Shown: piece after piece, positions 6,309-62,522 of the stretch
How the letters are laid out: every line of letters starts with the position of its first letter
How positions within the stretch are numbered: position 1 is the first letter of the stretch
Origin: Candidatus Anderseniibacteriota bacterium
GTDB lineage: Bacteria > Patescibacteriota > Andersenbacteria > UBA10190
DNA: 64,000 nucleotides
Assembly: GCA_040900375.1 (NCBI GenBank)
Contig: JBBDZC010000015.1
Coordinates: 8,366 to 72,365, forward strand
Direction of reading: 5' to 3'
Translations under genes and position numbers: made by a program
Notes under the pieces: generated by a model
What the model saw: only the letters and a program-made list of their open reading frames with translations
Told to the model about the DNA's origin: nothing
Databases searched by the model: none

Positions 6309-6382
6309 ATATGTCTTTGCCCGCTCTTAAAATAAATTCTGACAACAACCAACCTCTCTCTCTACTCTTGTACGCCCCAAAT

Positions 6383-6533
6383 GTCAACCCATTCGACTCC
6401 ACGGTCTAAAGGCCGTGGCTTGCTTAAGGGTTGACTCTAAAGCCGCGCGTATCTCCACCCTGAAGGGTGGAGCTTGCGCGAGTCGAAGAGTCAACCTGAG
6501 TTAGTCGAAGGGTGAGCCGATCGAATGGGTAAG
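6383..6533. repeat. nested-palindrome repeat family, copy 1 (MITE/REP-like)
   Basis: core 6383-6496 is essentially identical to 58634-58746 and related to 17310-17418. Contains hairpins ccaccctgaagggtgg and gggttgactct...agagtcaacc, plus terminal inverted repeat cccattcgac...gtcgaatggg. Confidence 0.7.
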
Positions 6534-16663: not shown

Positions 16664-17470
16664 TTAAGGTGAAGCGCGGGCTCGCCTCGCCGAAGCCTTA
16701 GGCGAAGGGCGGGTCTCTAATGGGGTCAAAACCGCGCGGACAGGAGCGCCATCGAGATCCACCGCCAAGGGCAGGCAGAGTAGTTCATAGTCTCCTGCTT
16801 CCACCTCTGCCAACCACAATCCTTCGATAATTATAATCCCGGCGTCGAGTAACATTTTATGGACGGTATCGCGAACACCTCTTTTCTTGACTGACGGCCC
16901 GTCAATACCGACGAGTTTTACTCCGCGCGCGACCAGCTCTTTGGCCGCACTTTCTGCGAGTGCCACAAAGTCGGGATCAAAAATTTCGAGTGAACCGGCA
17001 GAATTACTAGTTTTAAAGAGCACGCGCTCACCGGCAACCGGCGGTATATCGGCTGCGACAATAGTGTCAGCAGTGGCCGTAAGATCAATCACGACGCAGC
17101 GTCCACATAACTGTTCTAATGAATACATTGCCGTACCATGACCCCTGGGTGTTATGTGAGCCGGGGCGTCAATGTGGGTACCGGTATGAGAACCTAAAAT
17201 TATTTGCGTTAATGCACTCGAGGTAGCTGAAGCTTGCGCATGCGGTGTTAGGTGCACCGGAGGATTGCCAGGGTAAATAGCCAGGCGCTCATTAATCGGC
17301 CGGGTGATGTCAACCCATTCGGCGCCCCGGTCTTTTAAGACCGTGGTTTGCTTAGGGGTTGACTCTGAGCGTTTATCTTTGCCCTGAAGGGCCGAGCTGG
17401 CGCGAGTCGAAGAGTCAATCATTTTTTCCCTTAACGGCATGTCCTCCAAATTCCCGGCGCAGCGCCGCAA
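16664..17470 (-). CDS. cyclase-family protein (kynurenine formamidase-like metal-dependent hydrolase)
   Basis: HTGTHIDAPAH cyclase motif. Start uncertain: the M-initiated start MIDSS is at 17422 and its first codons lie inside repeat copy 2, but an upstream alternative start at 17470 is possible. Confidence 0.7.
   Translation of the reverse strand: MRRCAGNLEDMPLREKMIDSSTRASSALQGKDKRSESTPKQTTVLKDRGAEWVDITRPINERLAIYPGNPPVHLTPHAQASATSSALTQIILGSHTGTHIDAPAHITPRGHGTAMYSLEQLCGRCVVIDLTATADTIVAADIPPVAGERVLFKTSNSAGSLEIFDPDFVALAESAAKELVARGVKLVGIDGPSVKKRGVRDTVHKMLLDAGIIIIEGLWLAEVEAGDYELLCLPLAVDLDGAPVRAVLTPLETRPSPKASARRARASP
17310..17418. repeat. nested-palindrome repeat family, copy 2 (diverged)
   Basis: gtcaacccattc...ccgtggtttgcttaggggttgactct...gccctgaagggc...gagtcgaagagtcaa aligns with copies 1 and 3, with compensatory changes in the central hairpin. 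Confidence 0.6.
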
Positions 17471-32123: not shown

Positions 32124-32229
32124 AGAGATATTAATCTTAATGAATAAAAGAAGGCAGTACTAACATACCGCTACAGGCAGAGAAGAAAAGGGTATTTTTA
32201 CACTGGCTGTTGATAACAATCAACTGTAG

Positions 32230-32360
32230 ATAAAAGTCACCACGGGCGGGACACCCGTGGTATCGGGGGACTTTTGTCTGCGGCGTGCCGGCTCCGCCGG
32301 GACAGTGACAAAGCCTTTCATCCTCGGGCTTACGCCCAAGATCTTACGGGCTCTAGATAA
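32230..32360 (-). ncRNA. candidate structured RNA, paralog A of a two-copy family (unknown class)
   Basis: reverse complement is about 85% identical to 62392-62522. Differences in hairpins are compensatory or G-U wobble only when read on this strand. Confidence 0.4.
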
Positions 32361-32486
32361 ACACCGTCTCGTAAGCATGACCAGTGTGTATTTGCCTCAC
32401 TTGCCCCAGATAAAAACAAGTTTTCGCCCGTAAGCTCGCTCGCAAATATGAAGCTGTCCCCGCTAGGTTACGCGGGGTATTTGCGG

Positions 32487-32520
32487 GGTGTAATAAAACT
32501 CGCCCCACACAAAGGCGGGG
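32487..32520 (-). terminator. rho-independent terminator of the RRM protein gene
   Basis: aaactcgccccgcc-tttgtgt-ggggcgagttt hairpin followed on the minus strand by TTTTATT. Confidence 0.6.
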
Positions 32521-32543: not shown

Positions 32544-32858
32544 TTACCAACTGTTGCGATTACCGCCACGGTCAGCACCATAGCCACCACCTCGGCGAGG
32601 TGGGCGGCTTGCCAAGGGGCGAGCCTCATTGACGGTCAACGTCCGACCCTCAAATTCTTTATCGTGCCACAGTTCAATCGCCTTTTGGGCATCTTCATCT
32701 GTAGCCATTTCGACAAAGCCAAAACCGCGTGAGCGACCGGACATTTTGTCCGTGATAATACTAGCTGATTCGACCGTACCCGCCTGCCCAAATGCTTCTC
32801 GCAAAGCATCCTCGCTGGTGCTGTACGGCAAACCGCCAATATATAATTTTTTTGCCAT
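32544..32858 (-). CDS. RRM-type glycine-rich RNA-binding protein
   Basis: RNP-2 LYIGGL and RNP-1 RGFGFVEM motifs; RGG-rich tail. Confidence 0.85.
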   Translation of the reverse strand: MAKKLYIGGLPYSTSEDALREAFGQAGTVESASIITDKMSGRSRGFGFVEMATDEDAQKAIELWHDKEFEGRTLTVNEARPLASRPPRRGGGYGADRGGNRNSW

Positions 32859-58552: not shown

Positions 58553-58633
58553 GACTCCCTCCTGCCTTAAGTTAAACCCGCGGTTTCTAACGAACTACTC
58601 CGTAGTACTGTCATAACTTTGAGAAAACAAAAA

Positions 58634-58746
58634 GTCAACCCATTCGACTCCACGGTCTAAAGGCCGTGGCTTGCTTAAGGGTTGACTCTAAAGCCGCGCG
58701 TATCTCCACCCTGAAGGGTGGAGCTTGCGCGAGTCGAAGAGTCAAG
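58634..58746. repeat. nested-palindrome repeat family, copy 3
   Basis: identical to copy 1 core over about 113 bp; intergenic. Confidence 0.7.
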
Positions 58747-62019: not shown

Positions 62020-62274
62020 ATGGCAGAAACCAATGCAGCGTTTATGAAGCCAATGACAATCAGCGATGAGCTAGCTGTCGTAGTTGGCAAGGGGCCCATG
62101 GCTCGGTCGGAAGTGGTGAAGAAACTGTGGGAATACATTAAGAAAAACAACCTTCAGGATCCGGCCAATAAGCGTAATATCAACGCGGATGAAAACCTGA
62201 AAAAGGTATTTGGTGGCAAAGAGACCGTCAATATGTTTGAAATGACCAAGCTCGTTTCAAAACACCTGTCCTAA
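62020..62274 (+). CDS. SWIB/MDM2-domain protein
   Basis: full-length SWIB pattern (…LAVVVGKGPMARSEVVKKLWEYIKKNNLQDP…). Confidence 0.8.
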   Translation: MAETNAAFMKPMTISDELAVVVGKGPMARSEVVKKLWEYIKKNNLQDPANKRNINADENLKKVFGGKETVNMFEMTKLVSKHLS

Positions 62275-62391: not shown

Positions 62392-62522
62392 TTTATCTGG
62401 AGCCCGTAAGACCTCGGGCGTAAGTCCGAGGATGAAGGGCTTTGTCACTGTCCCGGCGGAGCCGGCACGCCGCAGACAAAAGTCCCCCGATACCACGGGC
62501 ATAAGCCCGTAGTGACTTTTAT
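62392..62522 (+). ncRNA. candidate structured RNA, paralog B of a two-copy family (unknown class)
   Basis: about 85% identical to the reverse complement of 32230-32360. Hairpins CCUCGG-N8-CCGAGG, CGGCG-N9-CGCCG, ACGGGC-AUAA-GCCCGU and long-range GGGCUUUGUC/GACAAAAGUCCC. Confidence 0.4.

Follow-up and report, generated by a model that had tools for sequence, protein, structure and literature searches.

The two loci and the shared unit

The window analyzed here is a 64,000-nucleotide stretch of a 94,426-bp contig in a Candidatus Andersenbacteria genome, and its proteins are numbered MEX1997726-MEX1997803. Twenty large open reading frames (ORFs) in it are ordinary chromosomal genes, including those for TypA, PBP1A, MurJ, an AddA-like helicase-nuclease and a sigma-70 factor. 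Two of its intergenic regions contain copies of the same short sequence, which will be referred to as the unit. The neighbors of copy A are genes for an RRM protein, an 80-aa membrane protein and MscL, and those of copy B are SWIB and AHSA1-like genes; copy B faces a convergent gene (Table 1). An earlier note on this DNA placed both copies just downstream of the RRM and SWIB genes and in the same transcriptional orientation, and this is correct. The RRM gene has its own hairpin-plus-T-run ahead of copy A in a terminator scan, and the SWIB gene has its own, weaker one, which was recognized by reading the sequence only.

A repeat search found one long inverted repeat in the window, with arms of 108 nt (32254-32361 and 62392-62499) that are 95% complementary, and blastn matched copy A to copy B with E = 4.7e-46. 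MAFFT extends the alignment past a hairpin loop that has been replaced, as far as 32230 and 62522, which gives a shared unit of ~131 nt, TTTATCTRGAGCCC...GTGACTTTTAT; outside the unit, the likeness drops at once on either side. The earlier note described a segment of ~130 nt as the near-reverse-complement of 62392-62522, and its coordinates are right to within one base. The differences that it quoted are also present, namely the helix UCUUGGGC/GCCCGAGG of copy A, which is CCUCGGGC/GUCCGAGG in copy B, and the hairpin CCACGGG-UGUCCCG-CCCGUGG of copy A, where copy B has ACGGGC-AUAA-GCCCGU. A covariance model that was made from these copies recognizes both of them (scores in Table 1) and gives at most 16 bits in the rest of the window.

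The third copy is on another contig (109,543 bp) of the same MAG and is visible only through a spurious ORF, MEX1997569.1 (P0001). This ORF was found when the proposed RNA strand of copy A (the strand claimed in the earlier note, which is minus at copy A and plus at copy B) was translated and searched against 1.84 billion representative proteins. The first 31 residues of MEX1997569.1 are the translation of the unit with two changes, Pro to Ala and Ser to Phe, and the remaining 21 residues are unrelated flank. The right border of this copy is that of copies A and B (...GTGACTTTTAT). The likeness between the copies begins at TTTATCT, 8 nt ahead of the first helix, and it ends right after TTTTAT in all three copies. 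Therefore, one genome has at least three copies of the unit, with ~93-95% identity and sharp borders.

In run SRR27977660, independent Logan contigs with the RRM and SWIB genes hold both junctions and end inside the unit, at 32304 and 62420. Such breaks are expected from a true repeat and not from an assembly artefact of the MAG. The possibility that the copies are the boundaries of a 30-kb mobile or invertible segment was rejected because the interval holds the core genes TypA, PBP1A, MurJ and a DEAD helicase, and also because a relative keeps the order DEAD-TypA...RRM.

Table 1. Positions, in the window, of the two copies, their parts and their surroundings
Feature	Position	Strand	Description and evidence
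RRM_1 gene upstream of copy A	32544-32858	-	same orientation as copy A
Inverted fragment	32426..32437	+	GCCCGTAAGCTC; 11/12 bases match the 5' end of the unit, GCCCGTAAGATC; inverted repeat I4
Solo left-end-like fragment	32396..32417	-	53 nt upstream of copy A; 22 nt at 73%; exact TTTATCTGGGGC at 32403-32414; repeat D1
Copy A, full unit	32230..32361	-	TTTATCTAGAGCCC...GGTGACTTTTAT; MAFFT, repeat search, blastn; covariance model 167 bits
11-nt direct repeat around copy A, partner	32351-32361	-	TTTATCTAGAG; 10/11 identical; repeat D2
Copy A, 5' arm	32310..32354	-	6-bp outer helix, 7x6 internal loop (CGUAAGA / AUGAAA), 8-bp GUAA-capped inner helix; folds
Copy A, central GC hairpin	32285..32303	-	GU-C-CCGGC GGA GCCGG-CAC; RNAalifold
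Copy A, linker	32259..32284	-	GCCGCAGACAAAAGUCCCCCGAUACC; mostly unpaired, C-rich; folds
Copy A, terminator-like 3' end	32230..32262	-	11-pair hairpin, 3-nt loop in scan, then ACUUUUAU; terminator scan, fold
11-nt direct repeat around copy A, right member	32224..32234	-	TTTATCTACAG; 10/11 identical; repeat D2
SWIB gene upstream of copy B	62020-62274	+	same orientation as copy B
Copy B, full unit	62392..62522	+	TTTATCTGGAGCCC...AGTGACTTTTAT; MAFFT, repeat search, blastn; covariance model 165 bits
Copy B, 5' arm	62399..62443	+	architecture like that of copy A; folds, strand tally
Copy B, central GC hairpin	62450..62468	+	RNAalifold
Copy B, linker	62469..62494	+	sequence identical to that of copy A; MAFFT
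Copy B, terminator-like 3' end	62495..62522	+	ACGGGC-AUAA-GCCCGU, then AGUGACUUUUAU; terminator scan

Folding, strand and the 3' end

On the proposed strand, copies A and B fold at -60.8 and -55.1 kcal/mol (z = -3.9 and -3.2), and so the earlier note was right to see a genuine, non-identical repeat with the potential to form several helices. The RNAalifold consensus on this strand consists of a 5' arm, a central GC hairpin, a mostly unpaired C-rich linker (GCAGACAAAAGUCCCCCGAUACC) and a 3' hairpin that is followed by a U-run, (G)UGACUUUUAU. G47 can give the outer helix one extra pair in copy B. A helix CGGCG/CGCCG in copy A is an alternative to the central GC hairpin, and the two are mutually exclusive. 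The Pro-to-Ala change in P0001 implies a C-to-G change in the third copy, which would break the central hairpin helix and extend CGGCG/CGCCG. The folds also indicate that AAAAGUC in the linker is able to pair with GACUUUU at the 3' side (inverted repeat I3). An attC site was rejected because it would be one long imperfect hairpin, which the unit is not.

Only on the proposed strand does the terminator scan find a terminator-like hairpin followed by a U-run at the 3' end of each copy (32262-32238, minus, and 62495-62510, plus). According to the MAFFT alignment, this hairpin is retained between copies A and B despite the replaced loop. The hairpin-plus-U-run end is the best single argument for the proposed strand. 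As in intrinsic terminators, the 3' 30 nt of the unit fit the definition used in the scan and an upstream A-tract pairs with the U-tract; unlike them, the unit has ~100 nt more of conserved structure upstream and follows genes that already have a hairpin-plus-T-run of their own. A promoter scan, whose rules may differ from those of this phylum, found no sigma-70-like site upstream of copy A or copy B. Because the homology starts so close to the first helix, the unit itself does not include a promoter.

The earlier note interpreted the differences between the copies as compensatory or wobble changes that reflect selection on RNA structure. None of the 38 predicted pairs is changed on both sides, and thus compensatory changes in the strict sense are absent. 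All six stem differences in the consensus structure on the proposed strand are one-sided, from G-C or A-U to G·U. The consensus structure was itself chosen to fit both copies; hence, a separate tally was made with the structure of a single copy as the reference. On the proposed strand, this gave 6 pairs kept and 1 broken with copy B as the reference, and 5 kept and 4 broken (two of the latter being flank gaps) with copy A as the reference. On the opposite strand, 2 pairs were kept and 3 broken with either reference. The opposite strand is nearly as foldable as the proposed one, with z = -3.3 and -3.0 and a consensus of -45.9 versus -50.1 kcal/mol.

The statement that wobble pairing is preserved on the proposed strand only holds for the GUAA-capped inner hairpin, where all three substitutions are G·U-compatible on that strand and on no other. 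It does not hold for the unit overall; the asymmetry is modest, column 47 favors the opposite strand, and so does column 122 if it is paired with C104. A C-to-U change implied in the third copy gives another G·U on the proposed strand. With this change counted, the tally is ~6:2 for the proposed strand, which is suggestive and not significant. The interpretation as a selected RNA structure therefore stands in part: the fold and the terminator-like end speak for it, and the lack of double-sided changes and the almost equal folding of the opposite strand speak against it. The case for selected RNA pairing is less strong than the earlier note supposed.

One explanation of these features is that each copy is its own gene for a trans-acting structured RNA of ~125 nt with a Rho-independent terminator, so that the copies would be sibling small RNAs. 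The C-rich linker might then serve as a seed, or the 5' arm might bind a protein, possibly the RRM protein whose gene is next to copy A. Such an origin would account for a terminator-like 3' end on a single strand, for a multi-helix fold with a conserved GUAA-capped hairpin, for a terminator hairpin that was kept although its loop was replaced, and for the lack of a conserved ORF. The six stem differences agree with it, since pairing is kept at all of them in the consensus structure and would be lost on the other strand at the three that lie in the inner hairpin; the implied C-to-U change in the third copy points in the same direction. There are also precedents, such as the multicopy FopS small RNAs of Bacteroides thetaiotaomicron, which are bound by the RRM protein RbpB (PMC11697453), and, more generally, sibling or multicopy small-RNA families that include LhrC, Qrr and NgncR_162/163 (PMC11697453, PMC4211561). 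Like these families, the unit has at least three copies, is intergenic, and has a Rho-independent-type 3' end with an unpaired stretch before it; furthermore, copy A has an RRM gene next to it and the partner of FopS is an RRM protein.

Other observations are more difficult to reconcile with sibling small RNAs. Families of this type have a promoter in common between copies and between species, and in most cases a seed as well, whereas the unit has no promoter in the shared sequence, no sigma-70-like site upstream and no homologue found outside this genome, and it is missing from the orthologous sites of relatives (see below). Pairs changed on both sides are lacking, the strand tally is small, and the opposite strand folds almost equally well. 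Finally, when the linker was compared with 79 start regions in the window, it was no more complementary to them than shuffled linkers were; the best duplex has -27.4 kcal/mol, compared with a mean best of -26.7 kcal/mol for the shuffles, 42% of which were as good. In short, sibling small RNAs would explain the terminator, the GNRA-capped arm and the wobble changes, but they leave the lack of a promoter, the insertion-like borders and the absence in relatives unexplained. We consider this explanation possible but rather doubtful; even so, it is a close rival of the one that we prefer.

Relatives, database searches and coding potential

Homologues of the RRM and SWIB proteins led to 10 loci from relatives. 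The order RRM, small membrane protein, MscL and GpsA is kept in L003/L004, L005, L006, L007, L008 and L009, as far as the contigs reach, and the unit is absent downstream of RRM in all six of these relatives. A motif, AAAAATRCCCTTTTCTTCTCT-N8/9-GCGGTATRGT, is located ahead of the membrane-protein gene in the window and in all of the syntenic RRM loci of the relatives. Between the RRM stop and this motif, there are ~60-150 nt in the relatives versus ~360 nt, with the unit, in the window. At the SWIB loci of three relatives, the downstream spacers are 6-136 nt and have no match to the covariance model. This model found no unit in any of the loci of the relatives (~126 kb of DNA), and blastn found none in L001-L005, the loci that it covered. 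One candidate in the syntenic position, L005:3292-3413, scored 14 bits, but its reverse strand scored 11 bits, its CYK score was 6.7, and it shares no sequence with the unit past TTTATCT; thus, it was rejected as a homologue.

The absence of the unit from the orthologous sites of relatives implies that it was gained recently and in a restricted lineage. The earlier note had contrasted the structured element with a recent DNA repeat. This contrast fails in view of the 95% identity, the sharp borders, the third copy and the absence from the orthologous site in six relatives; whatever else it is, the unit is a recent repeat. The suggested tie to genes for nucleic-acid-binding proteins is not conserved either, since the spacers downstream of RRM and SWIB in the relatives are short and without the unit. 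A riboswitch or leader was also considered and rejected, because the conserved motif ahead of the gene downstream of copy A is still in place after the unit, and because the gene that follows copy B is convergent to it.

The earlier note could not match the unit to a known RNA family by eye, and this is borne out by Rfam. Rfam 15 had no matches at gathering thresholds in the whole window, and in E-value mode the two loci had chance matches only, none of which exceeded 19.5 bits (the thresholds are 35-100). A scan with ARAGORN was negative for tRNA and tmRNA. Blastn in its distant mode had no match in 72,556 plasmids or 50,697 phages. IS110-type bridge RNA, omega RNA and retron ncRNA were rejected because no recombinase, TnpB/IscB or reverse-transcriptase gene is adjacent.

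Scans of larger collections were likewise negative. Two exact 20-mers from the invariant core had no matches in 185,579 GTDB species genomes, and exact 20- or 23-mers from the invariant linker had none in viral contigs and JGI metagenomes. Degenerate DNA probes for the peptides MKGFVTV[PA], QK[SF]PDTTG and AEPARRRQ gave no confirmed matches in viral and metagenome contigs. These scans used exact 20-mers or 8-residue peptide patterns, which diverged homologues could escape; for example, the third copy itself would escape the first 20-mer. The synteny comparison is therefore the stronger test of conservation. Neither the covariance model, over the ~126 kb from relatives, nor the collection scans found a homologue in another genome. 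The unit is undescribed and apparently species-restricted, and it belongs to a kind, either dispersed structured repeats or multicopy small-RNA loci, that is already known.

ORFs cross the unit on both strands, and MEX1997569.1 is annotated over the third copy, which could suggest that the unit encodes a small protein. However, the ORFs over copies A and B and the third copy on the proposed strand have 52, 26 and 52 aa, and their starts and ends differ and run into unrelated flanks, so no ORF is conserved. In addition, a GAGG motif abuts an internal ATG with no spacer, and a protein search with the opposite-strand ORF found no homologue. The sole match of the proposed-strand ORF among the 1.84 billion representatives is the third copy, besides two translated CRISPR-like repeat arrays, which were dismissed. 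A protein-coding role for the unit is effectively refuted.

Possible insertion and the nature of the unit

Several observations relate to how the unit came to these sites. TTTAT is present at both ends of copies A and B. Copy A is, in addition, surrounded by an imperfect 11-nt direct repeat, and the flanks of copy B have TTTAT (5 nt) alone in common. A target-site duplication is not established by these repeats. Two fragments that resemble the left end of the unit lie within 100 nt of copy A, one of them being the solo fragment and the other an inverted 12-mer ~20 nt further upstream. The solo fragment has an exact match to TTTATCTRGRGC, for which we calculate that ~0.03 would be expected by chance. 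Taken together, the sharp borders, the TTTAT ends, the 11-nt repeat and the nearby left-end fragments suggest insertion. No terminal inverted repeats join the ends of either copy, and locus B is without any inverted repeat of at least 9 nt. Pfam identified no transposase, integrase, HUH nuclease or reverse transcriptase among the ~70 ORFs of the window.

Our preferred explanation, which we advance tentatively, is that the unit is a young, lineage-restricted, non-autonomous interspersed repeat of ~131 nt that carries a directional structured-RNA/terminator module. The unit would have been copied into AT-rich intergenic sites that contain TTTAT, and spread by insertion is what the borders suggest. 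Each copy would bring with it the two-helix GUAA-capped 5' arm, the central GC hairpin, the C-rich linker and the 3' hairpin with its U-run. For a copy in the sense orientation downstream of a gene, as are both copies in the window, transcription would come from read-through or from a promoter in the flanking DNA. Presumably, the terminator of the unit would then end the transcript, and this would either add a structured 3' end to it or release a structured RNA of ~125 nt. Rather than a demonstrated conserved RNA gene, the unit is a non-coding repeat that may be transcribed.

This explanation is consistent with the number of copies and their borders, with the insertion-like signs at copy A, with the lack of a promoter within the unit and of matches in Rfam, plasmid, phage, viral, GTDB or JGI collections, with the empty orthologous site in six relatives and the three SWIB loci without the unit, with the independent contigs that break within the unit, and with a terminator-like end on one strand only. 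On the other side are the missing terminal inverted repeats, the lack of a mobility enzyme among the ~70 ORFs of the window, the small number of copies (three known), and the flanking repeat of just 5 nt at copy B. Furthermore, the GNRA-capped arm, the hairpin that survived the replacement of its loop and the three wobble-compatible changes in the inner hairpin would also fit selection on an RNA. The readings as an interspersed repeat and as sibling small RNAs are not exclusive, since a mobile unit is compatible with a functional RNA.

Short dispersed repeats with stable RNA folds are well known in bacteria. The BOX, ERIC/IRU, Correia/NEMIS and RUP repeats have 100-150 nt, are intergenic and species-restricted, and are present in tens to hundreds of copies; they can provide neighboring transcripts with terminators or processing sites. 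ERIC, Correia and RUP have terminal inverted repeats. The unit resembles these repeats in its length and placement, in its restricted occurrence and in its capacity for stable RNA structures that may serve as terminators, but it has no sequence similarity to them, as judged from the lack of Rfam, plasmid or phage matches, no terminal inverted repeats and only three known copies.

The PATEs derived from IS200/IS605 and the REP/REPIN sequences are moved by HUH/Y1 enzymes, have no terminal inverted repeats, and have end hairpins on one strand and, at their left flank, a short sequence that is always the same. The unit could be a DNA-only element of this type (PATE-like or REP-like) that an HUH/Y1 enzyme moves as single-stranded DNA and that has no RNA role. 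The hairpins would be the recognition sites for the enzyme on one strand, TTTAT would be the target or cleavage sequence, and the terminator-like appearance would be incidental. The unit shares with these elements the lack of terminal inverted repeats, the strand polarity, the TTTAT at the left flank and hairpins near both ends (~14-21 nt away from the border on the left and 12 nt on the right). In both copies, this pentamer is found ahead of the left end and again as the last bases at the right end. The two end hairpins of copy B, as read from the sequence, are alike (ACCTCGGGCGTAAGTCCGAGGAT versus ACCACGGGCATAAGCCCGTAGTG, 15/23 identical). A hairpin of single-stranded DNA would tolerate G·T on one strand, and the left-end fragments near copy A would also be in keeping with this type of movement. 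However, the 64-kb window yielded no Y1 transposase or RAYT, either with Pfam on the ~70 ORFs or in a tblastn search that is weak because its queries were approximate. The right-end hairpin has a different loop in two of the three copies, REPs are much shorter than the unit, and the likeness at the ends, with two observable left ends, is weak. We regard a DNA-only element as unlikely.

A neutral segmental duplication or gene-conversion remnant without function or mobility, with hairpins inherited from an ancestral terminator region, would fit a sequence with three known copies, high identity and no partner enzyme in the window. It is more difficult to explain in this way why the three copies are in unrelated contexts with identical sharp borders and without flanking gene sequence, why direct repeats are present at the ends, and why the unit is far more structured than shuffled sequence. 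Such a remnant is very improbable.

A further alternative combines mobility with a function. The unit could be a mobile small-RNA gene, that is, a non-autonomous CPR element that spreads a functional, GNRA-capped and terminator-ended RNA by a strand-specific, hairpin-dependent process with TTTAT as the junction. The RNA might, e.g., be bound by the RRM-type protein whose gene adjoins copy A or act as a regulator with a C-rich seed, and a second repeat family described below might be mobilized likewise. We consider this combination quite unlikely, if not as improbable as a neutral remnant.

The genomes of Patescibacteria are tiny and streamlined, and to our knowledge, their non-coding RNAs and mobile DNA are almost entirely uncharacterized. 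If our preferred explanation is true, a repeat that multiplies in such a genome and provides the ends of genes with a ready-made structured RNA and a terminator would illustrate, on a small scale, one way of gaining regulatory or 3'-end structure there. The observation in the earlier note is confirmed, its interpretation is partly supported, and the significance is modest. The unit has been observed in one genome, where its value is that of an unannotated repeat that breaks assemblies and that has given rise to a spurious 'hypothetical protein', MEX1997569.1. It is also a candidate to look for in metatranscriptomes of the source site.

A second structured repeat family, unrelated to the unit and without an Rfam match, is also present in the window. 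It has three copies, and its units start and finish with GTCAA. The presence of this second hairpin repeat family in the same window indicates that the genome hosts dispersed hairpin repeats, which agrees with the unit being an interspersed repeat.

Copies of the hairpin-rich repeat and genome structure

Short-read assemblies of this organism are fragmented by the hairpin-rich element of about 131 nt. Two Logan contigs of run SRR27977660, one with the SWIB gene (L001) and one with the RRM gene (L002), terminate within the element, at window positions 62420 and 32304, respectively. MEX1997569.1, annotated as a 52-aa 'hypothetical protein' on a different contig of this metagenome-assembled genome, covers the third copy and is the translated element continuing into unrelated flank; it is almost certainly a spurious CDS.

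Copies A and B are inverted and flank 30 kb (window 32361-62392) of core genes, including those for TypA, a DEAD helicase, PBP1A and MurJ. Recombination between the two copies could invert the 30-kb segment. There is no sign that this inversion has occurred, because a JGI contig of one relative shows the genes in the order of the window (DEAD-TypA...RRM).

Sequences around copy A and their counterparts in relatives

Sites near copy A and copies of a second repeat family
Feature	Position	Strand	Likeness
AAAAATRCCCTTTTCTTCTCT-N8/9-GCGGTATRGT motif	window ~32150-32199	minus	conserved also in L006, L007, L008 and L009 (relatives' RRM-gene loci)
Spacer after RRM terminator	window 32385-32490; L006:3400-3510; L007:630-735	minus (window)	looks partly alignable by eye
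Direct left-end-like fragment TTTATCTGGGGC	window 32403-32414	minus	left end of the 131-nt element
Inverted fragment GCCCGTAAGCTC	window 32426-32437	plus	5' end of the 131-nt element
Second-family copies	window 6379-6494, 58630-58745, 17307-17418	all plus	sequence repeat

The motif in the first row precedes the gene for the 80-aa membrane protein, the gene after RRM, and is kept across several Andersenbacteria-like genomes. It has no resemblance to the TTGACA/TATAAT consensus, and is probably a promoter or regulatory site.

Two short pieces of the 131-nt element occur directly upstream of copy A (window 32396-32437). In a read-through RNA the inverted fragment could pair with the 5' end of the element at 11 of 12 positions.

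In the spacer that follows the RRM terminator, one portion appears by eye to be alignable with the corresponding spacers of the two nearest relatives (one example is CTAGCGGGGACAGC...TTTGCGAGCGAGCTT against CTATGCGGGGTTGCC...ATGTGCAGGCTT), and this spacer contains a CCCCGC/GCGGGG hairpin. MAFFT left the by-eye stretches of the three sequences unaligned. In another relative, the RRM gene is followed by a hairpin-rich spacer (L005:3292-3413) with a weak covariance-model match of 14 bits to the element. Its layout is loosely similar, with TTTTATCT, a GAAA-capped hairpin within an outer helix and then a GC hairpin. Despite its position, which is syntenic with the copy A site, we judged this spacer not to be homologous to the element.

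A second repeat family

The window also contains a second repeat family of about 115 nt that is unrelated to the 131-nt element and has no Rfam match. Two of its copies are 99% identical to each other, and the third has 84-90% identity to them in three sub-segments. The unit, which both starts and ends with GTCAA, is strongly structured (z = -6.3) and folds into two long hairpins, GTCAACCC...GGGTTGAC and TTGACTCT...AGAGTCAA. One hairpin of the third copy displays an A-U to G-C double change, one wobble change and one mismatch. Every copy is intergenic and antisense to the flanking genes, which are on the minus strand.
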